From Acidobacteriota bacterium (lineage in GTDB: Bacteria; Acidobacteriota; UBA6911; RPQK01), in the NCBI GenBank assembly GCA_003819755.1, contig RPQK01000003.1:1-34064 (forward strand): DNA of 34,064 nucleotides, given 5' to 3'. A program made the translations under genes and the position numbers. This document shows, in pieces, positions 58-34,050 of this stretch. Positions within the stretch are counted from its first letter, which is position 1; every line of letters starts with the position of its first letter. The notes beneath the pieces were generated by a model, which worked only from the letters and a program-made list of their open reading frames with translations, did no database searches and was not told the DNA's origin.

Positions 58-472
58 AAGAAGACAGAAGACAGAAGACAGAAGACAGAAGTAAGAAGTC
101 AGAAGTCAGAAGTCAGAAGACAGAAGACAGAAGTCAGAAGTCAGAAGTCAGAAGTCAGAATGGGAAGGGCTGCTGCTCCTGTCACCTAACTTGCTTCGCT
201 CTTCTGATCTCTTTCTCTTCTGACTCTGACTTCGGCTCCGTCCCCATTCTGACTTCTGTCTTCTGCTCCGTTCCCATTCTGACTTCTGACTTCTGACTTC
301 TGACTTCTGCTCCGTTCCCATTCTGACTTCTGACTTCTGACTTCTGACTTCTGACTTCTGACTTCTCGATTTTCCGACTTCCGACTTCGGCTCCGTTCCC
401 ATTCTGACTTCTGACTTCTGACTTCTGACTTCTGTCTTCTGCTCCGTCCCCATTCCGATTTCCGACTTCGAC
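58..472. repeat. Inverted heptamer microsatellite array (GACAGAA/GTCAGAA arm, then TTCTGAC arm with interspersed 16-bp motif)
   Basis: About 14 G(A/T)CAGAA units at ~62-160. The reverse-complement unit TTCTGAC repeats over ~200-472, interrupted by GCTCCGT(T/C)CCCATTC at 235, 265, 309, 390 and 441. The array ends at the stop codon of the 473..1003 gene. Confidence 0.95.
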
Positions 473-1003
473 CTACTTTTCCGGCGCCCGTTCCCGCGGC
501 TCACGTCGCCCTCCGGGCGCGCCGCCGCCACGACGAACCGCTTCGCGGCGTTCCTGCGGTTCCAGGAGCTGGAAGAGCGGGCTTCGGACGCCGACCAGGT
601 GTGCGGTTTCCGACAGTTCGGCGAGCTTGGTCTGCTGTTCGGGCGTCAGAATCGCACTGATACGAGACTCAAAGCCCTCCTGTTCGGCTCTTATCTGCTT
701 CTGAACCGCGATTTTCTGGAGAACCAGTTTGCCGACAGCGGTGGGATCGCCGGTGTTCTCGGCCGCGTGGTAGATCTGCTCCTCAAAAACCTGGACCTGG
801 ACGTGAAGGTCACCCGTTCTGACCTCCATCGCCTGTTGTTCGTGCCGGATCGCCTGGACCTGCTGTTCGGTCAGTCCGAGCACTTCGCGCAGCCCTTTGG
901 ACCGTTCCTCTCGAATCTCCTGGCCCGCCCAGACAGACGCCGCCCAGGAACAAACGAGGACAACCACACCCAATGCCATCGCAAGCTTCAACCTGATTTT
1001 CAT
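473..1003 (-). CDS. Periplasmic Spy/CpxP (LTXXQ) family protein
   Basis: ATG at 1003 with AAAGGAG SD; signal peptide MKIRLKLAMALGVVVLVCSWAASVWA; two LTxxQ motifs (LGLTEQQ, ILTPEQQ); helical composition. Confidence 0.8.
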   Translation of the reverse strand: MKIRLKLAMALGVVVLVCSWAASVWAGQEIREERSKGLREVLGLTEQQVQAIRHEQQAMEVRTGDLHVQVQVFEEQIYHAAENTGDPTAVGKLVLQKIAVQKQIRAEQEGFESRISAILTPEQQTKLAELSETAHLVGVRSPLFQLLEPQERREAVRRGGGAPGGRREPRERAPEK

Positions 1004-1071
1004 AAAAGACTCCTTTCGTCCTTCGGCGACCAAGTTAGAACGGAGTCGGACACCAGTCATCAAAGCGCTGA

Positions 1072-1092
1072 AAAGAAGTTGTAAAGAAGTTG
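1072..1092. promoter_or_regulatory. Tandem direct repeat AAAGAAGTTG x2 (11-bp period), candidate response-regulator site
   Basis: Exact 10-mer at 1072-1081 and 1083-1092 in the divergent intergenic region upstream of the Spy/CpxP-like gene. Confidence 0.35.
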
Positions 1093-1134
1093 ACAAGTCG
1101 ACAAAAGTCGGCGTTCCGGCTTTGCCTGCGCGCC

Positions 1135-1143
1135 TGCTATACT
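1135..1143 (+). promoter_or_regulatory. Extended -10 promoter element (TGnTATACT)
   Basis: TGCTATACT lies 11 nt before the ATG at 1155 with no SD, consistent with a short-leader or leaderless transcript. Confidence 0.4.
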
Positions 1144-1154
1144 CTCTTACCCTG

Positions 1155-1643
1155 ATGACCCCCATCACGCATCTGCTTTTCCCTGCGGTCCTCGCGTCTC
1201 CTTTTCTTCCAAAATCCCGGCCGCGGGAGTTCTACGTCTCGGCCGGAATCGTGGCCCTTTCAGGAGTTCTGCCGGATATCATCAACCCGCACATTTCCCT
1301 GGCAGCGCGCTACGCGAGCTGGTCTCACAGTGTCTTCGCCCTGGCCGGTTTCACTCTGGTGGTTCTCGGCCTGACGGCGGCGATGCCTAAACGATTTCCG
1401 CTTGTCGTCGCCGCCCTCGCTTGTCTGGCCTACCTGAGCCACCTGCTGCTTGACGGCATATCCGGGGGCATCGCCGGCCTGTATCCCCTTTCCCGGGAGA
1501 TCCACGGCGGGCGGTTCATACGCTTCCGTTCCTGGCTCTACTTTGATGCCGTGCTCCTGTTTGCCGCCTATGTCGTGATCCGCCTGGTCCCCTCCATGAT
1601 TCGCAAGCGCGGACGAGCAACGAGAGCGACTGACGAAACATGA
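1155..1643 (+). CDS. Membrane-bound metal-dependent hydrolase (YdjM/DUF457-like)
   Basis: Motifs M-x4-H (MTPITH), LPD, SHS and SHLLLD, with hydrophobic helices. Confidence 0.8.
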   Translation: MTPITHLLFPAVLASPFLPKSRPREFYVSAGIVALSGVLPDIINPHISLAARYASWSHSVFALAGFTLVVLGLTAAMPKRFPLVVAALACLAYLSHLLLDGISGGIAGLYPLSREIHGGRFIRFRSWLYFDAVLLFAAYVVIRLVPSMIRKRGRATRATDET

Positions 1644-2813: not shown

Positions 2814-5800
2814 TCACCGCAACGGCGTCGGCGGGACGGCGGACATCCTCGGGGTGGCGGTGTCGGCGAAGATCTCCTGCGTTATCACCGGTCCGTTGGC
2901 CGCTACGTGGACGAATCCCCGCACCTGGCCGGTTGTCGACGGAACGAGCTCGTGGAGGAGTGCGCTCTTCCGCGTCTTTGGCTGCAAGACGAACTCTCCT
3001 TGCCCGCTTTTCACCGCCTGGTGATCGAAAACAGTCAGCCGGACCGTAACAACCGCGTTGCCCGGGTTGTAAAAAGCCAGCCCGGTATAGTATCCCGCGC
3101 CATTGGCCAGATGGCTGAACACGGCCTCGCGGAAAAACGGTTCCGATTGAAGAGGCAGAGCGGCTGCGGATGCAATTCCGGGCTCGTCCCCAAAAATCAC
3201 GCAACCCGACACTCCGGGCCCATCCGACTGGATATCGAGCGAACCGACTATTCCCGTCTGAGATAGATCGAGACTGCCTTTGCCGTCCAATCGAACCATG
3301 AAGCCAGGACCGATTGAGATCGGGCCGGCGAGCGTCAGGCGGAGTCCGGTTTCCGACCGCACGGCCAGCGTCACCCGTCGATCATGCTCGGATTGATTGA
3401 GCAGGACGATTTCGGTGAACACGCCGGGGACAGTCGCAAATTGCGCCGAGAAGAGCCTCGAGCTGGCGCTTGGATACTGGGGAGGCACGCAAAAGAGGCT
3501 TGATCCTCCTCCGACATCCACCCAGTGAGAGGCGATCACACCACCTCCGTTCAGAACATCGACGGCAATGTAAGCCTGAGACAGAACATCATTAGCGCCA
3601 AACAGGTCGGATACGGTCGCGGATAGCATTCCCCGAGCCGGCAAGATTTTTTCAGCCTGAAGCGGTTCAGCAATCGGATCACCTCCCCGCTTCAGTCTCA
3701 ACCGGACCGTAACCGGCTCGTCGTTTGGGTTGGCGAGGTTCACGTGAGTGACCGCGTCTTGTGACCGGAAAGCGCCGGGACCCGAGAAAACGGGCGCGAG
3801 GAAGAAGGTCCGTGATGAGACGGTAAAGGTGGAGCCGCCATCAAGTTGGCTCGGACTCCCGAGCATCTGTATGCTTCCCACCCGCCTGTTCTCACCGAGG
3901 ATTTCGACCCAGCCTTGAGATGCTAAACCGGGGAAAAGCTCGTCGGCCATCTCTGCCATCTGGCCGTTTGCGGGGAGAAGCCGCCTGGCTGTTGACGAAG
4001 CGCCGGTCGTCGTCCGGGCCTTAAGCTCCAGCCAGCCCGGCTCACCGGCGTTTGCGAACGCGAGGCTGGCCATAGGCCAGGGCGAACCGGTGAACAGAGG
4101 GATGAAACTTCGGAACGACATAGCATCCGAAACGGTGTTCTGTCCGCCGGGACTTCCGCCCAGCCGAGTGCTTGCAGCCCAGCTGGCAGCCGAAGTTGCC
4201 GGGCCGTCCGGGTCAGCTCGCTCAAGCGATGGCCCACTCCCGCCTGGTGCGGCGGGCCAGGGAAATTGGCTCGAATAGATGACCGTATCGATCACGGACT
4301 TGGATGGGTTCGCCAGCGTCAGCGTGCCGCCGGTGTCCGGCAGACTGCCCTTGTACTCCCCCGCCAGGTAGAGGCCGCTCCCGTATACCTGACGGAAGCG
4401 GGTATCCTTCTTCGCAAACAGAACACGATCCCGCGGCAGGATGACCGTTCCCGGCGGAACTGTGAGGCTGATTTCGGCGATAGTCCAGCTCGAGAGGTCG
4501 ACCGATTCTTCGAAGGAGCAGTTGAACAACTCGATGTATTCGTCGTCGGTCCCGTTCGTCGGTGCGTACATGATCTCGTTGATGACCACCCGCAGGGTGC
4601 TCGACTGTGGCGCGGGGATTCCGTCCGGGACTCGATGCGTGACGAACAGGTGCTCTCGACGGGGCAGGAGGTAGCCCTCTTTCAGGTGTCCCACCGCTTC
4701 GGCCAGACTCTGCTCTTCTCCGTACTGTCCCCAGCGCGCGGCATCCTGCTGGGCCTCGGGTGCGAAGAGCGGGACCAGGGCGTCGATTCGACTCTCGTAC
4801 TTGCCGGGTACCAGGAGAAGGTCCATCAGGGTGCGAAGTCGCCGCAGGTACATCTGTCGGATATCGGCCTCATCCAGCAGGGCATCGATCAGCCGGTTCC
4901 ACAGGAAATCCCACTTCTGATGCCGCCGGTCGCCGAAGAGCGGGTGGCTGGGTGTCACGTCTTCCCGCTCGGGGATAACGTCCACGTCAGCCCAAATGGA
5001 GTCGTTGAGGACCAGGCCGTATTGGTCGTAGGGCGGGCCCACATAGTTGCGGCCAAAGGTCAGGTCGAGATCCCAGGGGAACATCGTCCATCGCCCGGTT
5101 CCCACAGTGTCGCGGTACAGGTAGTAGTTCTTGTTCATGTGATCGTTGTTGTGGATGATCACATTCACGGCCAGGTAGTTGATCACGGCGGGGATGTTGA
5201 CATTATCGAAAAGGTAACGTCGACGCGCCTCCCGGTCCGGCCCGTTGATTTTCTGCAGGAATTCCGCCAGGTCCGTATAGTCCTCCCACTCCCGGTTCTC
5301 CTTTTCGTATGAGAGCCTCAGCTCGGCTTGAGAGGCCGGAGAGGCGTCCGCTTCGACGTCGGCCTTGTAATGAGCCCCTTCGTCGCCGAGCCCGTGCCGT
5401 CCCAACCAGTCTTCGTCGGGCTGTTCCAGAAAGACATAGAGCCCGAAGAACTTGCCGTTCTGATGCAGGCGGACGTGAAAAACCCGGTTGGCCGGTACAC
5501 CGGCTTCCTCGAAACTCTCCCAGGACAGGATCTCTCGCGAATAGGTCTTGTCCGAGTAGCTGCCTTGAAGGTTGAAACGGTCGACTGGAGCAGGGAGCCG
5601 GCCTGTTATCTTGAAATCGTGACTTTTTGCCGCCATGAACTTCCAATGGAGCTTCGGCCACCAACGGGCGGACCCGCCTCGCACTCGGCACTGCACTGAA
5701 TCGTAAACGTCGCCGTCGTACACGAGGGCGGCCGGCTCGGTCAGGTCTGTGTGGGCATGCTCGAGCGCCCGTTCGTACCGGCTCGGGTCGATGAACCAGT

Positions 5801-6680
5801 GGACAACCGGAAGCTGCGTCACGAGCCTCGGGTCCTCGACGAAGTACCCGGTGTTCTGGATCGTGTCATCGAATCGGGGGTAGCCGTTCTGGCCGAGCGG
5901 GCCGAGTGCGTGGACTCGAAACCGGACCAGGGAACCACCAGGCTGGGCCGGGATGGTGGCCTTGTACAACAGGGTGCCGGGGGCACCGGCTCCGGCCGCT
6001 GTCATCGACATCGAATGCTCGCCGTCCACATTGACGCGGTAGATGAGAAGAACCGTGAAGGCATCTGCCACTGTCGCGGTGACTTCCACGGCTTCGCCCG
6101 GAGACGGTTTCTTAGCGAACTCGACTTTGCTTATCCAGGCAGGCAGGCCGACGGCGCTGACACTGTTCCGCCGTCCCGGAGTCTGGCTTCCTCCCTGGGC
6201 GGCCCGCCAGTTGCGCGGCGTGCCATTGTCCGAGAGGGGGTCAATGACTTCCAGGGAGGGGCCCAGTCCGTCGGGCAAAACCGGCCAAGGCCACTCGTCG
6301 GAGTACTCGACCTCGTCGACGACCGCGCCGGCGGAGTCGGTCAGCCTGACCAACTCTCCTCCGTCATCCAGTTTCCCCGTGTAAACGAAATTCGGCCAGA
6401 ATCCATACGCTTGTGCCACAGCCGAGGCGTCACGGGCAATCACCAGGTGCTGGCCTGCACCGATCAGACCTCCCGGCGGGAAAGTGAAGCGGACCCCGGC
6501 GGAGAAGCTCCAGCCGGCAATATCAAGTGTTTCCGTTCCCGTGTTCAGGAGCTCGATGTATTCCGCTTCTTCGGGAACTCCCTCGCCAGGGCTGTACATC
6601 AGCTCGTTGATGACCACTTGGCCCTGGAGGTGGATGCAACAGGCGACACACAAAGCGACGCAGGCGGCAAGCTTCAACAT
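2814..6680 (-). CDS. Secreted CotH kinase family protein with two lamin-tail domains (LTD) and C-terminal beta-rich domains
   Basis: Signal peptide; two VVINE(L/I)MY...EYIEL LTD motifs; CotH motifs RVRGGS, NG-FFGLY, HNNDHMNKNYYLY and PWDLDLTFG. Confidence 0.88.
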   Translation of the reverse strand: MLKLAACVALCVACCIHLQGQVVINELMYSPGEGVPEEAEYIELLNTGTETLDIAGWSFSAGVRFTFPPGGLIGAGQHLVIARDASAVAQAYGFWPNFVYTGKLDDGGELVRLTDSAGAVVDEVEYSDEWPWPVLPDGLGPSLEVIDPLSDNGTPRNWRAAQGGSQTPGRRNSVSAVGLPAWISKVEFAKKPSPGEAVEVTATVADAFTVLLIYRVNVDGEHSMSMTAAGAGAPGTLLYKATIPAQPGGSLVRFRVHALGPLGQNGYPRFDDTIQNTGYFVEDPRLVTQLPVVHWFIDPSRYERALEHAHTDLTEPAALVYDGDVYDSVQCRVRGGSARWWPKLHWKFMAAKSHDFKITGRLPAPVDRFNLQGSYSDKTYSREILSWESFEEAGVPANRVFHVRLHQNGKFFGLYVFLEQPDEDWLGRHGLGDEGAHYKADVEADASPASQAELRLSYEKENREWEDYTDLAEFLQKINGPDREARRRYLFDNVNIPAVINYLAVNVIIHNNDHMNKNYYLYRDTVGTGRWTMFPWDLDLTFGRNYVGPPYDQYGLVLNDSIWADVDVIPEREDVTPSHPLFGDRRHQKWDFLWNRLIDALLDEADIRQMYLRRLRTLMDLLLVPGKYESRIDALVPLFAPEAQQDAARWGQYGEEQSLAEAVGHLKEGYLLPRREHLFVTHRVPDGIPAPQSSTLRVVINEIMYAPTNGTDDEYIELFNCSFEESVDLSSWTIAEISLTVPPGTVILPRDRVLFAKKDTRFRQVYGSGLYLAGEYKGSLPDTGGTLTLANPSKSVIDTVIYSSQFPWPAAPGGSGPSLERADPDGPATSAASWAASTRLGGSPGGQNTVSDAMSFRSFIPLFTGSPWPMASLAFANAGEPGWLELKARTTTGASSTARRLLPANGQMAEMADELFPGLASQGWVEILGENRRVGSIQMLGSPSQLDGGSTFTVSSRTFFLAPVFSGPGAFRSQDAVTHVNLANPNDEPVTVRLRLKRGGDPIAEPLQAEKILPARGMLSATVSDLFGANDVLSQAYIAVDVLNGGGVIASHWVDVGGGSSLFCVPPQYPSASSRLFSAQFATVPGVFTEIVLLNQSEHDRRVTLAVRSETGLRLTLAGPISIGPGFMVRLDGKGSLDLSQTGIVGSLDIQSDGPGVSGCVIFGDEPGIASAAALPLQSEPFFREAVFSHLANGAGYYTGLAFYNPGNAVVTVRLTVFDHQAVKSGQGEFVLQPKTRKSALLHELVPSTTGQVRGFVHVAANGPVITQEIFADTATPRMSAVPPTPLR

Positions 6681-6719: not shown

Positions 6720-6817
6720 GCAAACAAGGGTTATCCACGAACGGCCACGGACCAACACGGACCCAATTTCCAAACGTCGATGTTCGTTCGTGTCAGTCCG
6801 TGTTCGTCGGTGTTTGC
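6720..6817. repeat. Inverted 10-mer microsatellite hairpin (CACGGACCAA-type)
   Basis: Left arm CCACGAACGGCCACGGACCAACACGGAC; right arm GTTCGTGTCAGTCCGTGTTCGTCGGTG; outer GCAAACA/TGTTTGC; 20 nt identical to 32169-32188. Confidence 0.75.
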
Positions 6818-6863
6818 TTGCTGTTTTTTAGTCCCTCATGAAAAAATCGCCCGCGGAGGGGAA

Positions 6864-7754
6864 ATGCTCTTATCTCGACGATACTTCGCCTGTCTTCTTG
6901 TCACTCTGACTGTTTGCCCAGCCCTGCGCGCGCAAGAGAACTCAAACCTCGATACCCGCATCCGTGCGGAAATCAGCCGGTTCGAGGGCAAGGTCAGCCT
7001 CTTCGCCAAGAACCTCGATACCGGCACGACGTACGCCTTTGGGGCGGACGATATGGTTCGCACGGCGAGCACGATTAAGATCCCCGTGTTGGTCGAGGCT
7101 TTTGCTCAAGTGGCTGAGGGGCGGGTCCGGTGGGCCGACAAAGTCATTCTGAAGGACGCTAAGAAGATTTCGGGCTCGGGGGTTTTGCAGGAGCTGTCGG
7201 ACGGGCTGGAGTTAACGTTGCGTGACGCCGTGACACTGATGATCGTCTTGAGCGACAACACGGCGACTAATCTCGCCCTGGACGTGCTGACGACCGATGC
7301 GGTCAATGCGCGGATAAGCGGGCTGGGCTTGAAGCACACCTTCCTTTTGAGAAAAGTCGGCGGCGGAGGGGTGAGCAAGGCGGGAGAAGACCCGGCGAAC
7401 GCGCGCTTCGGCCTTGGTGTCACCACCCCGCGGGAGATGGTTTTCCTGCTCGAGAAACTGGAGCGCGGAGAGGTGATATCGCCAGCCGCCTCCGCAGAGA
7501 TGATCAAGCTGTTAAAGCGCACCCAGGGCCACGAAGGGCTCGGGCGCACTCTGCAGGGTGTAGAGATGGCCACCAAGCCCGGCGCCCTCGACCGACTGCG
7601 CAGCGAGGTCGGGATCATTTACACCAAGCGCGGCCGGATCGCCGTCGCGATTACGTGTGATGATATGCCCAAACCGGAGTGGACGGTTGATAATCCCGGC
7701 TACCTGCTCCTATCCCGGCTTTCCCTCATCCTCATCGAGGGGCTGGCGAGCTGA
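6864..7754 (+). CDS. Class A beta-lactamase-like serine hydrolase (Beta-lactamase2 fold)
   Basis: GGAGG SD; signal peptide; SxxK (ASTIK), SDN, TTP and K-P-G motifs. Confidence 0.85.
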   Translation: MLLSRRYFACLLVTLTVCPALRAQENSNLDTRIRAEISRFEGKVSLFAKNLDTGTTYAFGADDMVRTASTIKIPVLVEAFAQVAEGRVRWADKVILKDAKKISGSGVLQELSDGLELTLRDAVTLMIVLSDNTATNLALDVLTTDAVNARISGLGLKHTFLLRKVGGGGVSKAGEDPANARFGLGVTTPREMVFLLEKLERGEVISPAASAEMIKLLKRTQGHEGLGRTLQGVEMATKPGALDRLRSEVGIIYTKRGRIAVAITCDDMPKPEWTVDNPGYLLLSRLSLILIEGLAS

Positions 7755-9285: not shown

Positions 9286-9372
9286 ACCTCCATTGTAGAT
9301 TCTTGACGGGTTCAGGAGCGAGGAGTAGTGTAACGTCGGTTTTTTTTCGGCAATTGTCAGAAAGGGGTGAAC

Positions 9373-9747
9373 ATGAGAGTTTCTGGGGTGATTCGAATGG
9401 TGGCCTTGCTGTTGCTGGTTTCCGCTACTGTCTGGGCGGCGGATGTGAGCGGCAAGTGGATCGGGGAGTTTACGAGTCCCGACGGTCAGACGCGTCAAAG
9501 CACCTTCAACTTCCAGGTCAGCGGGGAAACGTTGACCGGAACGGTTGCCAGCACGCGCGGCGAGAGCAAGATCGAGGAAGGGAAAGTCGTCGGTGACGAC
9601 ATTTCGTTCAACGTCACGCGGAACTTCGGCGGCAACGACATGAAGTTCGTCTACAAGGGCAAAGTGGCCGGAGACGAAATCAAGTTCACGGTCACCGTCG
9701 GCGACGGCGACCGCACTTTCGAAATTGTGGCCAAACGGGCCAAGTAG
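9373..9747 (+). CDS. Small secreted beta-barrel-like hypothetical protein
   Basis: AAAGGGG SD; signal peptide ending VWA-AD; ADVSGKW...LTGTV...GKVAGDEIKFT alternating beta pattern. Confidence 0.8.
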   Translation: MRVSGVIRMVALLLLVSATVWAADVSGKWIGEFTSPDGQTRQSTFNFQVSGETLTGTVASTRGESKIEEGKVVGDDISFNVTRNFGGNDMKFVYKGKVAGDEIKFTVTVGDGDRTFEIVAKRAK

Positions 9748-9753
9748 CGACCC

Positions 9754-22064: not shown

Positions 22065-22065
22065 T

Positions 22066-25417: not shown

Positions 25418-25420
25418 GGG

Positions 25421-25515
25421 TCAAAGGACCTCAACGACCTGAAGGACCTGAAGGGCGACGACAGGCTTAAGGTCCTTCGGATCCTGCAGATCTTTCCGGT
25501 CCTTCAGGTCCTTGA
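25421..25515. repeat. Inverted 9-mer (AAGGACCTG) microsatellite hairpin between convergent genes
   Basis: AAGGACCTC-AACGACCTG-AAGGACCTG, then degenerate CAGGTCCTT units; fills the intergenic gap. Confidence 0.8.
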
Positions 25516-25526
25516 AGCCTGTGCCC

Positions 25527-26594
25527 TCACATCCACCGCAGCGCTACTGAGAAGTCCGCGGAAAGCTGCTCGAGCTTGGCCACCAGCGGCTGGCGGAAGG
25601 GTATACCCGACGCCTCGTACTCGAGCTTGCATCGATGGCTATGTTCGCCCGGCCAGCTGACTTCTCCCTGCTCGGGCGCTGGAGTCGCGGACTTCAAATG
25701 GTTTTTGAGAGCCTCGGTCTTTGACTCAAGCCACGCCCCAAAAGGACGCAGGGCGATAAACGTCTTGCTGGATCCACCTGCAAAATCATCTGGACGTCCG
25801 TCTTTGCCTTGCTCGAAGCAGAGCAGGCCGCCCGCCAACGCTCCCGTCAGCAACTCGATCATGAAAGCCAGACCCGAGCCTTTATGTCCTCCCATCGGGA
25901 GAATACGGCGGCTCTCTAGGATCGCCCGCGGATCCTTGGTAACTCTTCCTTCTTCGTCGACCCCCCATCCAACGGGGACCGCTCGACCTTCGGCGGCGGC
26001 ATCCATAATCTTTCTCACCGCAGCCTGCGTCATCGCGATGTCAAGGACTGCCGGCTCTTGTCCCTCTCCGGCAGGGACGCCGATGGCGATAGGATTGTTC
26101 CCGAGACATGGGTCCTTGGTTCCCCAGGCCGGAAAGTTGACAGTAGCATTCGTGAAGGCCAGGCCGATGTACCCTGCCCTCGCCGCCCGCAGAGCGTAAC
26201 TATAGCCCCGCCCCCAATGCGCCACCCCGCGCACTGAAACGAGGCCGACGCCGTAGACTTCGGCCCGCGTTACCGCTGCATCCATGGCAAGGGCCGATGT
26301 GTAACGCCCAATGGCTCGATCGGCCTGGTAAAGAACGGCAGCGGGCAGCTCAGTCACCACCGTGAGCTGAGGATTGGCGTTTATGCGGCCCGCCCGGAGA
26401 CTCGCAGCGAGACCGGGTACCAGCTGCACGCCATGCGAGTGAACCCCGGCCAAGTCAACTTCGGCCGTAATCTCCGCTTCGATCCGGGCCACATTGTCCG
26501 GTGCCCCGGCTTTGGAGAGGACCTCCCGAATGAAATCGATGAGATCTTTATGCGCCATGCGCTTGGTGGCTTGAACGCCCTTGGAGTGAACCAT
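25527..26594 (-). CDS. Ldh_2 family oxidoreductase (type 2 malate/L-lactate dehydrogenase, YiaK-like)
   Basis: GVHSHGV, HWGR, GNNPIAIGVP, LDIA, GGHKGSGLA and PGE motifs; start at 26600, 26594 or 26558. Confidence 0.9.
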   Translation of the reverse strand: MVHSKGVQATKRMAHKDLIDFIREVLSKAGAPDNVARIEAEITAEVDLAGVHSHGVQLVPGLAASLRAGRINANPQLTVVTELPAAVLYQADRAIGRYTSALAMDAAVTRAEVYGVGLVSVRGVAHWGRGYSYALRAARAGYIGLAFTNATVNFPAWGTKDPCLGNNPIAIGVPAGEGQEPAVLDIAMTQAAVRKIMDAAAEGRAVPVGWGVDEEGRVTKDPRAILESRRILPMGGHKGSGLAFMIELLTGALAGGLLCFEQGKDGRPDDFAGGSSKTFIALRPFGAWLESKTEALKNHLKSATPAPEQGEVSWPGEHSHRCKLEYEASGIPFRQPLVAKLEQLSADFSVALRWM

Positions 26595-26699
26595 GCTCAC
26601 GCCTCTGTTTCCAGTTTGAGAGGAGTGTATCCGACGATCGGCATGAGAGCAATGCTCCAGGGAGCGATTCTGCTACTATAGAAATGCCTTCAAGAATTT

Positions 26700-29186
26700 A
26701 TGAAAAGAGCGCCGTTCCACCTGCTTACCCTGTTGATTCTGACCAACTTCGCATTTCCCGATGTGCGTCCAAGATCGGTCGATGCCGCTGCCTTGAAGCT
26801 CGAGCTGAAGAAACTGACCGTCGTCGGGAACGTTCTTTACCTGGCCGCACATCCGGATGATGAAAACGCCGCCGTCCTGGCTTACTTGTCCCGAGGACGG
26901 TTGCTCCGAACCGGCTACCTTTCTTTGACCCGGGGCGACGGAGGCCAGAACCTGATAGGTTCCGAACAGGGTAAGCTCCTCGGTGTCATTCGGACGCAGG
27001 AGCTGCTTGCCGCCCGCAGCATCGACGGAGCCGAGCAGTTCTTCACCCGGGCGGTCGACTTTGGCTACTCGAAGACGGCCGAAGAGACGCTGCGGCTCTG
27101 GGGCAGGGAAGCCGTATTGTCGGATATCGTTTGGGTGATCAGGAAATTCCAGCCCGACGTGATCATAACGCGCTTCACGACGGAAGGCGGCGGGCACGGC
27201 AACCACACAGCTTCTGCGATCCTGGCCCAGGAGGCCTTTCAGGCGGCTGCAGATCCGACCCGGTTTCCGGGACAGCTTAAATCAGTCAAGCCCTGGCAGG
27301 CCAAACGACTCGTCTGGAACATGTACAACTGGGGTCGATACTCGGACGCCGAGACTACCGGTGCTTTGACCATTGACGTTGGGGAGTACAACCCTCTTCT
27401 CGGCAGGAGTTTCCGTGAGCTGGCCGGCGAAAGCCGCACCATGCACAAGAGCCAGGGAATGGGTGCGCCGGAAGGACGGGGAACGAGCGCCAATTACTTC
27501 AAACCCCAGGCCGGCGAACCGGCGAGATCGGACCTGATGGAGGGGATCGACCTGACCTGGGGTCGCATACCAGGAGGCGCGGCCATTGGCCAGCTTTTGG
27601 GGAAAGCCTGGTCGAGTTATCAGTTCGAGGATCCATCGAGTGTCGTCCCGCTCCTGGTCCAGGCTTACCAGATGATGCAGAAGCTCGAAGCAAATCCCAT
27701 GGTCCGCTACAAAGCCGAGGAGACCCTCGAGGCGATCCGGCTTTGTTCGGGCCTCTGGCTCGAGGCCATCAGCGACCGGGCCTCGGCATCGCCCGGACAG
27801 ACGGTCACCGTCAACCTGGCTGTCATCAACCGTTCGCGCTTGCGCCTGCGGCTGTTATCGGTTTCCGTCGAACCGGGCGCCGCATCCAAACAGCCTGATC
27901 TACGACTCGAGTACAACGTTCCTGCGACCGCCACGATCCCGCTTCCGATTCCAGCCGAAACCGGGTACACGGAGCCTTACTGGCTGGCTGAAGAGGGGAC
28001 TCCTTATCTCTACGAAGTGCGGGATCAGCAAAAAATCGGCCTGGCAGAGAGCGGGCCGGCGGTGCGTGCCAAGGTGCGAATCGCGTTTGAGACGGCGGAA
28101 CTGATGTACGAAGTGCCGGTGCTCTACCGCTGGGTCGACCCTGTCCAGGGCGAACGGTACCGCGCTTTTGAGGTGGCGCCGGAGGTTTCGGTCCGGCTGA
28201 ATGAACCGGTAACACTCTTCGCGAACGGTCAGCCGAAGCGGGTGCACGCCGAAGTGACCAATGGCACCGGTACCGTCTCCGGGACCATTTCAGTGAGGCT
28301 CCCGGCCGGCTGGGCGGCGGATCCGGCCAGCATTCCCCTGAACCTGTCCGTCAAGGGAGAAAAGCGAGACTCCGAGTTCCGCATCTCCCCGGCCGCGGGC
28401 GCTGTCTCCGGACCGATCAGCGTCGTGGTGGAGGCCGAGGGAAAACTCCTGGCCCGGTCCGTCGCCGCGGTAGAGTACCCTCATATTCCGGCGCAGACGG
28501 TATTCGAGGAATCCAAGGGGGTTCTTCTTCGCCTGGATGTCAAGAAAGTAGGCCAACGGGTTGGCTACATCATGGGATCCGGCGATTTCGTGCCCGAAGC
28601 CCTCAGGCAGATGGGATACGAGGTGACGCCCCTGACCGATGAAAGCCTTTTGGTCGCGAATCTTTCCTCCTACGACGCGATCGTCGTCGGCATTCGTGCC
28701 TACAACACCCGGCCTCTTCTCCAGACCGTCCATTCCAGGCTCCTTGACTACGTATCCGCCGGGGGGACGCTGGTCGTGCAATACAACACTCTGCAGGAGT
28801 TGATCACGACCGATCTTGGTCCGTATCCCTTCCGGCTCTCGCGCGAACGGGTTTCCGTGGAGGAAGCCCCGGTCCGGATACTCGCTCCGGAGCATCCGCT
28901 GCTGACGCAGCCAAACCGCATAACCGCGTCCGATTTTGAGGGCTGGGTCCAGGAGCGTGGGCTTTATTTCCCCGGGCAATGGGATCCCAAATACCAGACG
29001 GTGATTTCAACGGGGGACCCGGGTGAGCCCGCGCTCGACGGTGGTGTTTTGTACGCCCGGCACGGGAAGGGAATCTACATCTATACCAGTTATGCCTGGT
29101 TCCGCGAGCTTCCGGCCGGTGTTCCGGGCGCCTATCGTTTTTTCGCTAACATGGTGTCTGCAAGGGGCAGTAAAGATGGCAGTTGA
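26700..29186 (+). CDS. Secreted PIG-L/LmbE-family deacetylase with C-terminal beta-sandwich and GATase-like domains
   Basis: Signal peptide; AAHPDDE, TRGDGGQN, RTQEL, DFGYSK, HGNH and HKSQG; C-terminal WVQERGLY and FRELPAGVPGA. Confidence 0.9.
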   Translation: MKRAPFHLLTLLILTNFAFPDVRPRSVDAAALKLELKKLTVVGNVLYLAAHPDDENAAVLAYLSRGRLLRTGYLSLTRGDGGQNLIGSEQGKLLGVIRTQELLAARSIDGAEQFFTRAVDFGYSKTAEETLRLWGREAVLSDIVWVIRKFQPDVIITRFTTEGGGHGNHTASAILAQEAFQAAADPTRFPGQLKSVKPWQAKRLVWNMYNWGRYSDAETTGALTIDVGEYNPLLGRSFRELAGESRTMHKSQGMGAPEGRGTSANYFKPQAGEPARSDLMEGIDLTWGRIPGGAAIGQLLGKAWSSYQFEDPSSVVPLLVQAYQMMQKLEANPMVRYKAEETLEAIRLCSGLWLEAISDRASASPGQTVTVNLAVINRSRLRLRLLSVSVEPGAASKQPDLRLEYNVPATATIPLPIPAETGYTEPYWLAEEGTPYLYEVRDQQKIGLAESGPAVRAKVRIAFETAELMYEVPVLYRWVDPVQGERYRAFEVAPEVSVRLNEPVTLFANGQPKRVHAEVTNGTGTVSGTISVRLPAGWAADPASIPLNLSVKGEKRDSEFRISPAAGAVSGPISVVVEAEGKLLARSVAAVEYPHIPAQTVFEESKGVLLRLDVKKVGQRVGYIMGSGDFVPEALRQMGYEVTPLTDESLLVANLSSYDAIVVGIRAYNTRPLLQTVHSRLLDYVSAGGTLVVQYNTLQELITTDLGPYPFRLSRERVSVEEAPVRILAPEHPLLTQPNRITASDFEGWVQERGLYFPGQWDPKYQTVISTGDPGEPALDGGVLYARHGKGIYIYTSYAWFRELPAGVPGAYRFFANMVSARGSKDGS

Positions 29187-29321: not shown

Positions 29322-29461
29322 GGATGGTTGCTGACGGGGCGCTAGTAACGCCCTGAAAGACCGGAAGGACCGGAAGGACCAGAAGGACATGAAGGACATT
29401 TGTGTCTTTCTGGTCTTTCAGGTTTCTCAGGTCGTTACAAACGCCCCTTAACCAACCATCC
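29322..29461. repeat. Inverted 9-mer (AAGGACCGG) microsatellite hairpin with long unique outer stem
   Basis: GGATGGTTG..GGGGCG..GTAACG..CCTGA pairs with TCAGG..CGTTAC..CGCCCC..CAACCATCC; five AAGGAC-type inner units. Confidence 0.85.
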
Positions 29462-29483: not shown

Positions 29484-31175
29484 ATGAGGCCTCTTGACTG
29501 GGTCGTACTAGTTGCCTTCCTGCTCTTTTCCGTCGTGTTCGGCATTCGCCGGGGTCGGGGGACCCGCGACATCCGGGCTTACATGCTCGCCAACAAGAGC
29601 ATGCCCTGGTATGCAGTCGCGCTCTCGATCATGGCTACCCAGGCCAGCGCCATCACTTTTGTCTCGACGACCGGGCTGGCGTACGCCGATGGAATGCGCT
29701 TTGTGCAATTCTACTTCGGCCTCCCGATAGCGATGGTCCTCCTCTCGATCTTCGCCGTCCCAATCTTCCATCGCCTTAATGTCTACACGGCCTATGAGTA
29801 CCTGGAACAGCGGTTTGACCTGAAGACCCGGGTGTTGACGTCCGTGATTTTTCTGGTCTCGCGCGGGCTGGCCACCAGCCTCTCGCTCTATGCCCCCGCC
29901 CTGATCCTCTCGGTCGTCCTGGGGTGGGACGTGCGTCTCACGATCTGGCTCATCGGACTCCTCGTCATCCTCTACACGACGCTGGGCGGGGTGGTCGGTG
30001 TGAACTGGAACGACTTTCAACAGTTCATCGTCATCATGGGCTCGATGTTCGTGGCACTGGTCATGATCATCCACCTGCTACCCAACGATGTTTCCTTCGG
30101 GGAAGCCTTGTCGGTCGCGGGGGTGATGGGCCGTTTAAACGCCGTTGATTTCTCCTTCGACTGGCAGAATCGGTACAACTTCTGGTCGGGCCTGATCGGC
30201 GGCCTTTTCCTCGCCCTGGCTTACTTCGGAACCGATCAGTCCCAGGTGCAGCGCTACCTGACCGCCCGCTCGGTGGCGCAGAGCCGTATAGGACTCTTGT
30301 TTAATGGCCTCGCCAAGGTCCCAATGCAGTTCTTCATCCTGTTTGTCGGCGCCATGGTCTTTGTCTTCTACCAGTTCAACCCGGGGCCGATTTTCTTCAA
30401 CCCCATAGAGGAACAACGGATCACCACGAGCTCACTGGCACAAGAGTATGAGCGGGTTCAGGTCGAATACCGAGAGGCGCAAGCGGCAAAAGGAGAAAGG
30501 ATACGAAATTGGCTCGCGGTATCCAGGCTCGACAATCCTGCCGCAGAAAGCCGCGCCCGGACCGAACTGCAGGCTGCCGACCAAAAGGCGCGCCAATTGC
30601 GGAGCGAAGCTCTGGGCCTGATGAAGCAGAATGACCCTGCCGCCGACACGAACGATACGAACTATGTCTTCCTGACGTTCGTGATCCGATACCTTCCCGC
30701 CGGATTAGTCGGGTTAATCATCGTCGTCATTTTTGCCGCCACCATGTCGGCCATTTCATCCGCGTTGAACTCACTGGCCACGAGCAGCATCGTCGACGTG
30801 TATAAAAGGCTGTTGAGGGAAGAGGCTTCGGACAAGCACTACCTGCTCGTCTCCCGCCTGACCACCGTGGGTTGGGGCATCTTTGCGATTCTGGTTTCCG
30901 AGCAGGCCGCGCGGCTCGGCCCATTGATCGAAGCCGTGAACATCCTCGGATCGCTCTTTTACGGCACCGTTCTCGGAGTGTTCATTGTCGCCTTTCTGCT
31001 CAAGCGCGTAAGAGGGACGCCGACCTTCGTCGGCGCGCTGGTCGGTCAAGCCTTCGTCATCTGGCTCTTTCAATACACCACGGTCGCTTACCTCTGGCTG
31101 AACGTTTTTGGGGCTTTGGCCGTGGTGGGGGCAGCGGTGTTGCTCGCATTCCTGACGAGGGGGCGAAAAGTCTGA
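29484..31175 (+). CDS. Sodium:solute symporter (SSS) family transporter
   Basis: SIMATQASAITF, YTAYEYLEQRF, YFGTDQSQVQRYL and AATMSAISSALNSLA; many TM helices. Confidence 0.93.
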   Translation: MRPLDWVVLVAFLLFSVVFGIRRGRGTRDIRAYMLANKSMPWYAVALSIMATQASAITFVSTTGLAYADGMRFVQFYFGLPIAMVLLSIFAVPIFHRLNVYTAYEYLEQRFDLKTRVLTSVIFLVSRGLATSLSLYAPALILSVVLGWDVRLTIWLIGLLVILYTTLGGVVGVNWNDFQQFIVIMGSMFVALVMIIHLLPNDVSFGEALSVAGVMGRLNAVDFSFDWQNRYNFWSGLIGGLFLALAYFGTDQSQVQRYLTARSVAQSRIGLLFNGLAKVPMQFFILFVGAMVFVFYQFNPGPIFFNPIEEQRITTSSLAQEYERVQVEYREAQAAKGERIRNWLAVSRLDNPAAESRARTELQAADQKARQLRSEALGLMKQNDPAADTNDTNYVFLTFVIRYLPAGLVGLIIVVIFAATMSAISSALNSLATSSIVDVYKRLLREEASDKHYLLVSRLTTVGWGIFAILVSEQAARLGPLIEAVNILGSLFYGTVLGVFIVAFLLKRVRGTPTFVGALVGQAFVIWLFQYTTVAYLWLNVFGALAVVGAAVLLAFLTRGRKV

Positions 31176-31179: not shown

Positions 31180-32079
31180 CTAGATCCTCACCCGGCTGAA
31201 ATCTGACGCGCTGTCGTTGGCTCGAAAGCTCCAGAAGAGAATTCCGGAGTAGCCTTCCCTTTTTGCTTTTCGGACATATTGCGCCGGCTGGATGCCCGTT
31301 CCGGCCGTTGGGGCCTCACCCACGAGGCACGGCCGGTCAAGCGTGCGGATACCCGCCCGAAGGGCGGCGAGCCGGAGACGCAGGCGTCCCAGATACCAGT
31401 GACACTGATAGAGATCGAGCCCAAGGTTGCGCCAGTAGCGAAGCCATTGAGGTCGAGCACTCCCGACGGTGACCGGTTGCCCGGCCTCCTGGTGAATCAT
31501 CTCAGTACATTCGCGGACAAAGGCACGCATCGATTCGAGGTCAACCGAGCTCCCATTTGGTCGCTCGAATCGGCGCACAACCCATTCCGGTTCGTTGATC
31601 AGGTCCCAGGCGAATATCTCAGGACATCTTCCGTACCGGCCAAGAAGCGGGGCAAGGGCGTTCTTCAAAAAGGACTCGCGCCTGGCCGGCTCTGCGACGA
31701 CTTCAGAATGCCCTCCCAGTTGCACCCCCTCAAGGACCGAGCCTTGGCGGCACCAATGGAAATCGAGCAGAACCGGCATGACCTGAACACGGCTCTGTTC
31801 GGCGGTGTGAACCAGCGTGTCGAAGTCCCTAAAAAAGAAATCGTCAAAGCCCATGACATTGCCGGCGCTATCGAACTCCGGCGACGAACGCCCGTCGGCA
31901 AAAACGAAGACGCGAATGACCTTTTTCCCGCCAGTCCCCAGCACGGACTCAATTTCGCTAAACTCGCGATAAAGCTCTTTCTTGGCGCTCGCCAGCCCCC
32001 GGTAGCACCACCCGGAAGTGCCGAAGTCCTGTCCATAGTGCCGCCACGGGTAATTCGCGCCGATGATGAATTCTTTCAT
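31180..32079 (-). CDS. Clan GH-A (GH5-like, mannanase-like) glycoside hydrolase without signal peptide
   Basis: GANYPW, IRVF, WDLINEPEW, HWY, LVGE and GILFW motifs. Confidence 0.75.
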   Translation of the reverse strand: MKEFIIGANYPWRHYGQDFGTSGWCYRGLASAKKELYREFSEIESVLGTGGKKVIRVFVFADGRSSPEFDSAGNVMGFDDFFFRDFDTLVHTAEQSRVQVMPVLLDFHWCRQGSVLEGVQLGGHSEVVAEPARRESFLKNALAPLLGRYGRCPEIFAWDLINEPEWVVRRFERPNGSSVDLESMRAFVRECTEMIHQEAGQPVTVGSARPQWLRYWRNLGLDLYQCHWYLGRLRLRLAALRAGIRTLDRPCLVGEAPTAGTGIQPAQYVRKAKREGYSGILFWSFRANDSASDFSRVRI

Positions 32080-32083
32080 AGTG

Positions 32084-32205
32084 CGACAGGGACGAACACG
32101 GCCGAACAAGGCCGAAGACGGACAAACACGGACAGGGACACCACCAATTCAGTGCCAGCGCCTCCGTGCGTGTCAGTCCGTGTTCGTCCGTGTCCGTCCC
32201 TGTCG
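32084..32205. repeat. Inverted 10-mer (CACGGACGAA-type) microsatellite hairpin
   Basis: Outer CGACAGGGACG/CGTCCCTGTCG; 10-bp periodic arms; overlaps the 3' end of the 32173..33054 gene. Confidence 0.85.
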
Positions 32206-33054
32206 GTCCATTTCAAGCAAAAACCGCAGTCCCGCCCGACGGCAATCGCCGGGATGCGAATCCCACATTTCGTGTCCGGCGTCTTCAATAACGGTGATCC
32301 TGACGGCCGGATTAAGTTCCAGGATCCGGTCAGTAATCGCCTTGAAAAACGGCAGGCTCCGCTCTCCCTGGAGAAGCAGCGCGGGCACCCGGAGGGCACG
32401 GATGCTGTCCTCCGGGATCACGCTGAACGGGTCGCGGGAAAAGGCAATAGCTTCCCACTCCAGAGAATTGTCAAGCAGGGCCTGTCGGAGGTGGAGAGGG
32501 AACCGATCGTACTGTCCTTCCCCCTGGAAATACGCAATTGTCGATCGCACGGCCGCTTCGCGGTCTTTGCGCAACCAGGCCTTCCTGACCGGCTCCCAGA
32601 GATGCGTCATATGCTCGTCGTAAAGCTGCTGCAGCGAGGGCTCGGAGGTGCGAAGGAGTGGAAGAACGGGTGGCTCGGACAACACGAGCGAGTGGACGAG
32701 CCCCGGCTCCTGGATGGCGAGATACAAGGCGACGTAGGCACCCAGAGAATGAGCCACTATTCGAGCAGGCACGAGCTGAAGGCCGCGCAGCAGGGAAGCA
32801 AGATCCTCCGCCTCGATCGCCACCGAATGATCTTCGCCGCTCCAGGAGTTCAGGTTCGGGTAGTTGTACCGCCGGCTATACGCCAGGGTTTTGAACCGTC
32901 GCGAGAAGGCCTCCACATGCCTGTCCCAACTCCGCACGTCGACAAGAGAGCCATGGACCAGAACCAGGTTCCGTTCAGAAGCGGCGGAGTCGGCGAGCGA
33001 GTAGTGAAAACCGAGGTTTCCAACCCTGAAGAGACGCCAAGCCGTTTCAGCCAT
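32173..33054 (-). CDS. Alpha/beta fold hydrolase
   Basis: LVHGS oxyanion motif, AHSLG nucleophile elbow and DAGH catalytic His; start may be 33084. Confidence 0.88.
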   Translation of the reverse strand: MAETAWRLFRVGNLGFHYSLADSAASERNLVLVHGSLVDVRSWDRHVEAFSRRFKTLAYSRRYNYPNLNSWSGEDHSVAIEAEDLASLLRGLQLVPARIVAHSLGAYVALYLAIQEPGLVHSLVLSEPPVLPLLRTSEPSLQQLYDEHMTHLWEPVRKAWLRKDREAAVRSTIAYFQGEGQYDRFPLHLRQALLDNSLEWEAIAFSRDPFSVIPEDSIRALRVPALLLQGERSLPFFKAITDRILELNPAVRITVIEDAGHEMWDSHPGDCRRAGLRFLLEMDRQGRTRTNTD

Positions 33055-33118
33055 TCCTTTGATTCCACGTCCTTTCCACCGCACAAAATACGATATCCTG
33101 TTTTAAAGGACCTTGCCT

Positions 33119-33862
33119 ATGCTCAAAATCATGACGCTCAATCTCAATTACCTCGTTGACAAGCACGGAGCCTGGCCTGAAAGGCGTGGTCTTATCGCCC
33201 GAACGATCGAGCAGAACGGGCCGGACATCATCGCCTTCCAGGCCGTCCGTGCCATGGGAGGCGGCTTGACGCAGATCGAGGAGCTGTCTCGCCTGGTGTC
33301 CGGCTATCCCTATCGGGTCTTTATCGCGGCCGTGGAACACGGCGACGGGACGGCGGACGGGTCGGCTTTCCTTTCCCGAGTGCCGTCATCCAGCGTGGAT
33401 TCACTCAGGCTCAGCCTCCCGGACGACCCCGATGATCCAACCCCGCGGGTCCTGCTTCACGGCGTCTTCGTTTTGCAGCAAGGCATTCTGGACCTGCTTA
33501 ATTGCCATTTTTCCTGGATTTCGCCTCAGGCGGTTCGAAGTGTCTCCGAAGTTCTTCCCTACGTTGGCGGCATCAACGGTCCGGTGATGCTGGTCGGCGA
33601 CATGAATTCGACGCCCGAAACCGAGGCGATGAAGAAGCTCGCGCAAGCCGGCTTCATTGATGTCTGGTCGGAGCTCCATCCGGGCGACACCGGGTTTACT
33701 TTCGAAGCCGACAATCCGAGCATTCGGATCGACTACGCCTGGATTAACCCGCTCCTGCAGCCGCTTCTCAAGGGAATCGAGCAAGTCGGGGAACTATCGC
33801 CCCATCCGCCCAGGCTGTCTGACCACCTTGGGCTGGTGGTGACGCTGGAGTTGGCGGCGTAG
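33119..33862 (+). CDS. Endonuclease/exonuclease/phosphatase (EEP) family protein
   Basis: MTLN, PDIIAFQ, NCH, VGDMN, RIDY and SDH motifs; AAGGA SD. Confidence 0.9.
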   Translation: MLKIMTLNLNYLVDKHGAWPERRGLIARTIEQNGPDIIAFQAVRAMGGGLTQIEELSRLVSGYPYRVFIAAVEHGDGTADGSAFLSRVPSSSVDSLRLSLPDDPDDPTPRVLLHGVFVLQQGILDLLNCHFSWISPQAVRSVSEVLPYVGGINGPVMLVGDMNSTPETEAMKKLAQAGFIDVWSELHPGDTGFTFEADNPSIRIDYAWINPLLQPLLKGIEQVGELSPHPPRLSDHLGLVVTLELAA

Positions 33863-34008
33863 TGGAGTAACCACGGCCCGGCTCTGCAACTGTTCGGACT
33901 GTTCGCATCCGCCCGTCCTCGCCCCGCCTCCAGCTGACAATGTTATCCACGAATTACACGGCGCGGCGTAGCCGCAACCAAAAACCTGCCCGATGAAGAA
34001 GAAAGACA

Positions 34009-34050
34009 GAATGTCGAATATCGAATATCGAATGTCGAATGTCGAATGTC
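34009..34050. repeat. Heptamer tandem repeat GAAT(G/A)TC x6
   Basis: Six contiguous copies near the window end; any inverted arm would lie outside the window. Confidence 0.9.

Follow-up and report, generated by a model that had tools for sequence, protein, structure and literature searches.

Array hairpins in the window

The stretch of DNA analyzed here, the window, is the whole of one contig (RPQK01000003.1, 34,064 nucleotides; C22 in our numbering) from the draft genome of an Acidobacteriota bacterium. This assembly, G000, comprises 7.34 Mb in 953 contigs, has a G+C content of 59% and is 91% complete. Eleven elements built from short tandem repeats lie in the window (Table 1), all of them between protein genes and none inserted in a 23S rRNA helix. 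In ten of the eleven, a tandem array is followed, after a short unique spacer, by its own reverse complement. Elsewhere in the genome, inverted arrays of this kind bracket genes for four-helix-bundle proteins. The evidence below shows that hairpins and gene-bearing cassettes belong to a single system, which is old, relocates and expands in bursts.

An earlier examination of the letters alone, the original prediction, had listed the same eleven elements, and Tandem Repeats Finder (TRF) together with direct reading recovered every one at its listed place and with its listed unit. The TRF arrays also confirm that the copy numbers of the two arms are unequal, and the locus-specific outer stems that had been described are real in E6, E7 and E9. 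All ten complete elements fold as a single long hairpin on both strands, with minimum free energies (MFE) from -30 to -200 kcal/mol and z scores of -2.4 to -20.6 against mononucleotide shuffles. E2 is the weakest of these, and both E2 and E5 have only two or three units per arm. None of the window elements contains an open reading frame (ORF) for a four-helix-bundle protein, as tblastn with the six proteins described below gave no match on the contig, and no Rfam family was matched either in the window or at the six cassette loci.

The two arms differ most visibly in E1, where the right arm is 2.5 times as long as the left and has a higher-order period of 30/44/81 nt. This period is made by a GCTCCGTYCCCA insert that recurs among runs of TTCTGAC.

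Table 1. Array elements of the window. Positions count from the first nucleotide of the window; arms are given left, then right; MFE in kcal/mol.
Element	Position	Structure and unit family	Arms and spacer	Outer stem	Genomic context	Folding	Basis
E1	58-472	hairpin, AGAAGTC (AGAAGWC) 7-mer family	left arm 59-160 (14.6 units), spacer 161-217, right arm 218-470		abuts stop of gene 473-1168(-)	MFE -188.8/-200.2	TRF, folding
E2	6720-6823	weak hairpin, CACGRAC 10-mer family	6735-6764, 6781-6814	short, GCAAACA/TGTTTGC	divergent starts of CotH-like gene 2814-6680(-) and beta-lactamase-family gene 6837-7754(+)	z -2.4/-3.9	
E3	9754-9850	hairpin, AAAGGGGC 8-mer family	9755-9791, 9806-9849		between divergent gene starts	MFE -83.6	
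E4	10554-10723	hairpin, AAGGGAC 7/9-mer family	10556-10635, 10667-10717		fills gap of convergent genes 9893-10537(+) and 10720-11112(-)		
E5	12068-12125	short hairpin, AAGGGAC 7/9-mer family	12069-12086, 12101-12125		abuts stop of chemoreceptor gene 12124-15756(-)		
E6	16407-16516	hairpin, CACGAATTA 9-mer family	16433-16455, 16466-16489	locus-specific, ~25 bp, 16407-16432 and 16490-16516	starts 31 nt past stop of 15849-16376(+)	MFE -73.8	
E7	21907-22066	hairpin, AAGGGAC 9-mer family	21917-21990, 22002-22056	GTGGGTTTC/GAAACCCAC	abuts stop of phosphofructokinase gene 22066-23202(-)		
E8	25421-25515	hairpin, AAGGACC (AAGGACCNN) 9-mer family	25424-25454, 25466-25513		convergent genes, stops 4 nt and 12 nt away		
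E9	29322-29461	hairpin, AAGGACC (AAGGACCNN) 9-mer family	29355-29397, 29404-29433	imperfect, locus-specific, 29322-29354 and 29434-29461	upstream of symporter gene 29484-31175(+)		
E10	32084-32211	hairpin, CACGGAC (CACGRAC) 10-mer family	32086-32133, 32163-32209				
E11	34009-34053	lone left arm, GAATRTC 7-mer family	6.4 units		cut by contig end		

Inverted arrays throughout the genome

Loci were called genome-wide wherever neighboring TRF arrays with a period of 5-14 had reverse-complement consensus units (at most one mismatch, in any rotation) and were separated by a gap of no more than 150 nt. The assembly holds 843 such inverted-array loci, or about one per 8.7 kb, with periods of 9 (402 loci), 7 (282), 8 (87), 10 (63) and 14 (9). 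The original prediction had conceded that the elements might prove no more frequent than in shuffled intergenic sequence. They are far above chance: intergenic DNA alone (815,708 bases by our own gene calls) contains 686 loci, and a dinucleotide-preserving shuffle of it contains none, which excludes chance as their source.

The inverted arms are real DNA and not products of assembly, which had been a further concern. The elements are internal to contigs and have unique flanks, and the same architecture occurs in a 1.75-Mb contig from another genus of the same family (genome G004), where a 400-kb sample contains 17 such hairpins with partly different units. Because 314 of the 1906 contig ends of G000 stop within 60 nt of a 6-14-mer array, the true number of loci is above 843. 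Contigs from two public DNA runs were short and of low depth, and they break at arrays. In short-read assemblies of this lineage, these repeats are a major source of breaks between contigs.

Unit families and arm order

Clustering reduced the 117 canonical units to 23 groups. About 12 of these are large and have tens to hundreds of copies each. The elements had been proposed to conserve their architecture and not their sequence. The shared architecture is confirmed, but the elements that have it form about a dozen large sequence families, each with its own fixed arm order. Free variation of the units is not borne out, since they belong to families that recur across the genome.

Arm order is nearly invariant within each family. 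A core motif assigned 636 of the 843 loci and left 207 unclassified in this count; all but two of those assigned have the arm order of their family (AAGGACC, 168/168; GAACGGT, 81/81; CACGRAC, 61/61; AAGGGAC, 59/59; GTCAGY, 56/56; AAGGGGC, 48/48; AAGGATG, 43/43; CACGAATT, 41/41; AGAAGTC, 30/30; CGCGGAT, 19/19; GACGATT, 13/13; GAATATC, 10/12). This order is a real property of the elements, a palindrome reading alike on both strands, and a fixed order is what any element copied whole would keep. The related claim that the purine-rich arm always comes first is true of all ten complete window elements and does not extend to the genome, where 692 of the 843 loci are purine-first, 137 are pyrimidine-first and 14 are ties, and where the second-largest family, ACCGTTC, has the opposite polarity. 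Polarity is fixed per family, and placing the purine arm first is therefore mostly a property of each family.

Copies within a family also agree in how many units each arm has, in how the unit variants are ordered and in their end motifs, and their loops are unrelated. In the AAGGACC family an arm usually has four units, of which the third is often AAAGACC, and the two CACG families have the end motifs TTTATC|...|GATAAA.

In the 8-10-mer families only, arms of the same locus resemble each other more closely than they resemble arms elsewhere, with mismatches of, for example, 1.4% versus 7.2% for CGCGGAT and 4.1% versus 11.6% for CACGRAC. In the 7-mer families such a likeness is missing. At 142 of 757 loci the unique flanks are complementary over at least 8 bp, compared with 5 of 757 shuffled pairs, and most of these loci belong to the 9- and 10-mer families. 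The likeness of the arms and the complementary flanks would be compatible with insertion into the tips of hairpins already present as well as with later symmetrization by template switching. One family is nested in the loop of another at 12 of the 843 loci by a strict test, and more cases were noticed by eye. This number is about what random intergenic insertion gives, and it was not taken as evidence for targeting of loops.

These properties bear on whether each hairpin could have grown in place, from a terminator or quasi-palindrome, by replication slippage, with intramolecular template switching keeping its arms alike. The unequal copy numbers and the locus-specific variants that are mirrored between arms would be natural products of such growth, and template switching could extend a palindrome into outer stems like those just described. 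Independent growth would, however, be expected to yield locus-specific units in both arm orders, whereas tens to hundreds of loci agree in their units, in the number of these per arm, in the succession of variants and in the end motifs, and the arm order is fixed per family. We regard independent local growth as quite improbable, and as a sole explanation it is ruled out by the recurrent families, the fixed arm order and the shared structure of the copies. It may still act as a secondary process after insertion.

Four-helix-bundle genes between inverted arrays

The family TIGR02436 has six matches in G000, and all six lie between or beside arrays. Four are strong matches to genes for proteins of 85-135 aa (on contigs C306, C546, C528 and C94), and each is enclosed within a pair of inverted 7-mer arrays, an arrangement that the original prediction had suggested looking for. 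The units of these arrays, AGAAGTC (C306), GCTGACG, GTTCACC (C528) and AAGGATG, are also the units of the four largest families of 7-mer hairpins, which comprise 30, 56, 81 and 43 loci. The two weak matches are longer proteins (196 and 188 aa) that are 67% identical to each other and also have the TIGR04258 suffix domain. One of the long genes (C90) is flanked by two AAGGACC hairpins, a family of 168 loci, and the other (C275) adjoins a hairpin of the AAGGGAC family, which has 59 loci.

Each unit family for which a cognate gene was found is paired with its own four-helix-bundle paralogue, and 437 of the 636 assigned loci are in families with a cognate gene in the assembly. The gene-bearing form encodes the four-helix-bundle protein only, without a recognizable transposase, and the arrays alone are common to the gene-less and gene-bearing forms. 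The suggestion that the hairpins are cargo-less versions of repeat-flanked cassettes is thus supported: the units at the six genes are those of six large hairpin families, and a like correspondence exists in related genomes.

Among proteins of solved structure, XCC0516 of Xanthomonas campestris (PDB 2GSC) is the nearest relative of the one on C306; it has five chains in its structure and is described in print as a homopentameric toroid. Long four-helix-bundle proteins occur in several phyla represented in the protein atlas. The tail of the four-helix-bundle protein on contig C90, KGPQGPQRPQGQ, is itself encoded by AAGGACC units (L005:1999-2037).

Period, unit and protein clade in relatives

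The correspondence between protein and unit was followed in related genomes, labeled G001 onward, with G007 left out of the counts. These genomes are kin, and the counts from them are non-independent trials. Genes of the short type were sampled in G000-G004, G008-G011, G018 and G019. Among their 23 loci, 15 have 6-8-mer arrays on both sides, five have them on one side and three have none, and the two-sided arrays are inverted wherever the period permits the test. The sole 9-mer near a short-type gene is weak, with 2.4 copies about 370 nt away. All 12 long-type loci have a 9-mer or 10-mer array at most 900 nt away, and one of them, a 73-aa fragment, additionally has a 7-mer array. Short proteins go with units of 6-8 nt and long proteins with units of 9-10 nt.

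A tree of ten long-type proteins contains three well-supported clades that track the unit. One clade has TCGGATC arrays (G003 and G010, support 100/99). Another has AAGGACC, AAGGACA or AAGGGAC, which together read AAGGRAC (G000, G004 and again G000, support 99/98), and the third has CACGGAC 10-mers and GGACCG 9-mers (G003, G008, G010 and G001, support 100/99). The nearest cross-genome pairs of short-type proteins likewise have near-identical units, namely GTTCACC with GTTCAGG (76% identity) and AGAAGTC with AGGAGTC (61%). GCTGACG proteins pair with those of ACTGCGC and ACTGACC at 56-59%, and ACCATTG is present at both G019 copies, which pair at 62%. Protein relatedness therefore tracks the unit and not the host. 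The DNA that flanks short-type partners is mostly unrelated, which implies that a gene and its arrays move as one and relocate. Of the 17 gene-less hairpins in the 400-kb G004 sample, 8 have a unit that is also found at a cassette of that genome (ACTGCGC, GATTGCG, GACCAGCT or AAGGACA).

A pattern of three AAGGACC units occurs 160 times in G000, six times each in G003 and G004, twice in G001 and once in G009. It is missing from the remaining 71 of the order's 76 genomes, and its distribution is that of a lineage-specific burst. At orthologous junctions, the neighboring genes of the same-genus relatives G001 and G002 are 66-78% identical, and syntenic genes of G003 and G004 are 74-84% identical. 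Junctions related to those of the window have GAAGCCA units in G001 and no array in G002. Contig C147 of G001 (L104:781-1029 and 2180-2231) has a GAAGCCA 7-mer hairpin at the junction related to 25421 and a AGTCCTTGA array at the one related to 26600; their counterparts in the window are an AAGGACC hairpin at 25421 and nothing at 26600. Since related junctions of the two species hold different arrays, the elements turn over between species.

Two variations on the cassette were noticed in these genomes. Long-type genes of G010 (C7, L159) and G003 (C371, L148) have an in-frame 10-mer CACGGAC array between the N-terminal bundle and the suffix domain, and with this internal array they stay open, at 262 and 421 aa. 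In G004, a dispersed palindromic repeat of the GGAGCGCGGACATC type, about 100-210 nt long, lies between inverted GCAGAGG arrays (C14:264920-265100 and 270270-270530; L036:4920-5100 and 10270-10530), and G003 has dozens of copies of it at 75-99% identity. Pairs of arrays can therefore enclose things other than four-helix-bundle genes.

Mobility and insertion signatures

Target-site duplications are absent in the four families examined. Direct matches of at least 5 nt between flanks were found in 10/217 cases for AAGGACC, 0/41 for CACGAATT, 2/57 for CACGAAC and 2/18 for CGCGGAT, and shuffled pairs gave 2, 1, 0 and 0. The statement that no mobilizing enzyme is encoded in the window is correct, and none adjoins the elements elsewhere in the genome either. 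Y1 transposases (PF01797, Y1_Tnp) are present, with 10 matches at eight loci. Only one of the eight loci has a hairpin within about 500 nt (at about 450 nt) and none is flanked by hairpins on both sides, and these genes were rejected as linked mobilizing genes.

Y1 transposases act on hairpins and leave no target-site duplication. The elements could accordingly be extragenic palindromes akin to repetitive extragenic palindromic (REP) sequences or to REP doublets forming hairpins (REPINs), mobilized in trans by an enzyme of the IS200/IS605 type that resembles the REP-associated tyrosine transposases (RAYTs), with the four-helix-bundle genes as passengers. Hundreds of extragenic palindromic copies, the lack of duplications and the presence of the eight Y1 loci would all agree with such an origin. 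We consider it unlikely, because the Y1 loci are not flanked on both sides as RAYT genes are and all but one lie away from hairpins, because about a dozen unrelated unit families would need equally many specificities, and because it leaves unexplained why the clade of the four-helix-bundle protein and the period track the unit.

Templated repeat addition, the other generating mechanism that had been put forward, finds no support, as RVT_1 reverse transcriptase has no match in the 91%-complete assembly. The form of it that was weighed takes the elements for scars of double-strand breaks, in which repeats were added to both 3' ends from a template before the ends were joined. Scars of this kind would account for the fixed arm order, the unique loops, the unequal arms and the missing target-site duplications. 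However, besides needing a reverse transcriptase, they would explain neither the gene-bearing form nor the 15-19% of loci with complementary unique flanks, and the strict avoidance of coding sequence would follow only via selection. We hold this origin to be extremely improbable.

Genomic placement and transcript ends

Genes were called by our own codon-usage gene finder, which predicts 5909 genes (89% coding) and mis-called at least one gene of the window (31279-33159(+), where a Pfam-supported hydrolase gene, 32173-33084(-), lies). Although the genome is 89% coding, just 15 of the 843 elements are inside genes. The others are at tandem (406), convergent (191) and divergent (85) junctions or at contig edges (146), and they occupy 25% of the convergent junctions (191/763), 12% of the tandem ones (406/3367) and 10% of the divergent ones (85/826). 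The median distance past the upstream stop codon is 8 nt, and 47-48% of the elements are within 10 nt of it. The claim that most elements begin at a stop codon is accurate for seven of the ten complete elements in the window, which adjoin stops supported by Pfam or codon usage. It fails for E2 and E3, which lie between divergent starts, and for E9, which is 136 nt past the nearest well-supported stop.

Some neighboring genes may be mentioned here. The right arm of E10 covers the last codons and the stop of the hydrolase gene. For the phosphofructokinase gene beside E7, the best named matches are 57-65% identical and come from several phyla, and they were uninformative as to the host. The CotH-like gene beside E2 encodes a 1288-aa protein with lamin-tail and CotH kinase domains; this gene and the beta-lactamase-family gene on the other side of E2 are ordinary chromosomal genes outside the present finding.

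The short distance from stop codons and the enrichment at convergent junctions are what intrinsic terminators at 3' ends would exhibit, and they fit hairpins of that kind, yet 85 of the 826 divergent junctions are occupied as well. Judged by sequence, a role of the hairpins at the RNA level is plausible. An A-rich left flank or a T-rich right flank is present on 35-40% of sides, compared with 14% for the wrong base. Runs of A or T in these flanks (at least 4/6) have frequencies of 0.36 and 0.35 regardless of the direction of transcription, and they are alike upstream, downstream and at divergent junctions. T-runs of at least 5/6 are found on about 10-12% of hairpin sides. A consensus terminator scan did not call the elements, save for fragments of E5 and E6, and from 9001 to 29000 of the window it found 18 conventional terminator-like sites, not above the 20.6 +/- 5.2 of shuffled sequence.

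The elements might on this basis be taken for RNA elements that serve the host, that is, for iterated bidirectional 3'-end hairpins (terminators or mRNA stabilizers) that also act as binding sites of the four-helix-bundle proteins and whose number reflects selection and not selfish spread. Their position past stop codons, a convergent occupancy twice the tandem one, the base preference of the flanks and the lack of any excess of conventional terminator-like sites in the window would be in keeping with this, as would the greater likeness of same-locus arms in the 8-10-mer families. Yet a tenth of the divergent junctions is occupied too, the flanking T-run is independent of the direction of transcription and few sides have a T-run of at least 5/6, and there is no co-variation between arms in the 7-mer families. 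The burst of AAGGACC (160 versus 6) and the different units at junctions of sister species, moreover, look like turnover and unlike conserved function. There is in our judgment only a small chance that service to the host accounts for the elements.

Interpretation

The window elements are probably gene-less members of a small, selfish family of four-helix-bundle cassettes that resemble intervening sequences (IVSs). A complete cassette would comprise a TIGR02436 gene (S23p, the 23S rRNA intervening-sequence protein), with or without TIGR04258, bracketed by two inverted arrays of one unit, and the window elements would have retained the two arrays around a short locus-specific loop. The four-helix-bundle protein may recognize its own unit, and the gene-less copies may spread in trans. 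If transcribed, their long stems might act like intervening sequences, as substrates of double-strand RNases, or like 3'-end hairpins. Either behavior would let the hairpins be tolerated just past stop codons.

Several observations weigh against this interpretation. No transposase, reverse transcriptase or nuclease was found in the cassette or linked to the elements. The 91%-complete assembly, which is broken at arrays, contains no cognate gene for CACGRAC, CACGAATT, AAGGGGC, CGCGGAT, GACGATT or GAATATC, and 604 of its internal 7-10-mer arrays have no detected inverted partner. Just one marginal match to the interior of the cognate cassette was found among 208 loops of gene-less 7-mer elements; because the loops have no similarity to cassette interiors, these elements are not recent internal-deletion derivatives. 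A gene linked to arrays is co-inherited with them whether or not its protein binds them. The junctions of relatives are too diverged for filled and empty sites to be paired base by base, and the symmetry of the A-run and T-run flanks gives no sign of locus-by-locus selection for termination.

The most interesting result is the correspondence between protein subtype, period and unit. One possible, though rather doubtful, account of it is that the S23p/Avd type of four-helix-bundle protein reads tandem nucleic-acid units in a sequence-specific way and promotes the copying of array pairs to new intergenic sites. One subunit of a ring or stack would bind one unit, so that subunit size would set the period (6-8 nt for about 120 aa; 9-10 nt for about 190 aa, suffix domain included). 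By analogy with the ring proteins that read spaced triplets and control attenuation, binding to a single-stranded arm might open or lock the hairpin. If such readers exist, they would define a new class of protein-guided mobile hairpins, and they would supply the function that the ORFs of 23S intervening sequences have lacked since the 1990s.

As far as our literature searches reach, three features are new: the unit-specific paralogues, the period that follows the protein subtype, and the relatedness that follows the unit across bacterial families. A full-text search returned no paper that names TIGR02436 and none that joins an intervening sequence protein with flanking tandem repeats. Heptamer arrays that flank four-helix-bundle genes had been cited as a known feature in the original prediction; no printed source for them was found, and the description may be the comment of a database family. 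The correspondence joins two loose ends, an unexplained excess of 7-9-nt tandem repeats in certain bacterial genomes and the function of the four-helix-bundle proteins of 23S intervening sequences. It also makes the question of S23p function one that binding assays can address directly, with cognate and non-cognate ligands predicted in advance.

Comparison with known systems

The elements share several properties with REP sequences, bacterial interspersed mosaic elements (BIMEs) and the REPIN-RAYT system, which are likewise palindromes outside genes, number in the hundreds, often lie at the 3' ends of genes and lack target-site duplications. They differ from these in that their arms are tandem arrays, that no RAYT-type gene is flanked by them and that the sole genes linked to them encode four-helix-bundle proteins. 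MITEs (miniature inverted-repeat transposable elements) are similar in being short and non-coding, with inverted ends, a gene-bearing counterpart that shares these ends and a burst of copies in one lineage. Unlike MITEs, the present elements have no target-site duplication and no shared interior, and their gene-bearing form has no transposase.

The short proteins are of the same fold class as Avd of the diversity-generating retroelements and match its model weakly (NF033474, DivGenRetAVD; E values 1.9e-6 and 1.5e-4, below the model cut-off). In contrast to those retroelements, no reverse transcriptase was found in G000 (0 RVT_1 matches), and there is no pair of template and variable repeats. 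The TAACTGA repeats of Beggiatoaceae are direct repeats upstream of start codons (PMC4679880), and they were set aside as a different thing.

Another parallel is found in Xanthomonas. Arrays of the heptamer GGGAATC are described there as intergenic and arranged in close inverted ("convergent") pairs, with 70-75 per genome; the pairs are commoner between convergent than between divergent genes, and no link to insertion sequences was seen (PMC4692102). The same main-text passages deal with a single unit, interpreted as forming G-quadruplexes, and mention no link to four-helix-bundle genes (PMC4692102). Tandem heptamers in close inverted pairs are also what 282 of the 843 G000 loci contain, E1 of the window among them. 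G000 departs from Xanthomonas in its many units of 7-10 nt and in the correspondence of protein to unit. G-tracts of at least three are confined to the AAGGGAC and AAGGGGC families; AAGGACC, ACCGTTC, CACGAATTA, CACGAACCAA, AGAAGTC, AAGGATG and CGCGGAT have none.

Stem-loop intervening sequences that contain no ORF are known. The intervening sequences of 23S rRNA are described as selfish elements of unknown mobility in which terminal inverted repeats form a stem, sometimes with an S23p ORF in the loop, and which are excised by RNase III (PMC4990558). The G000 assembly contains no 23S gene, and the 23S genes of G004 contain no insertion (2964 nt versus a model of 2925 positions). The present elements differ from the 23S intervening sequences of Leptospira, Coxiella and others in being intergenic, in having stems made of tandem 6-10-nt units and in being present in hundreds of copies without a gene, which fall into about a dozen unit families. 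An ORF of the PF05635/TIGR02436 kind is also missing from the window elements and is found only in the cassettes on C306, C546, C528 and C94. The window elements are not intervening sequences in the strict sense, because they lie outside rRNA and RNase III processing is proposed for them only by analogy. Nevertheless, terminal inverted repeats form a long stem in the window elements and the cassettes just as they do in intervening sequences, and the full cassettes of G000 place a gene of the same family in the loop of that stem. We therefore read the window elements as intergenic, gene-less, array-stemmed relatives of the intervening sequences.

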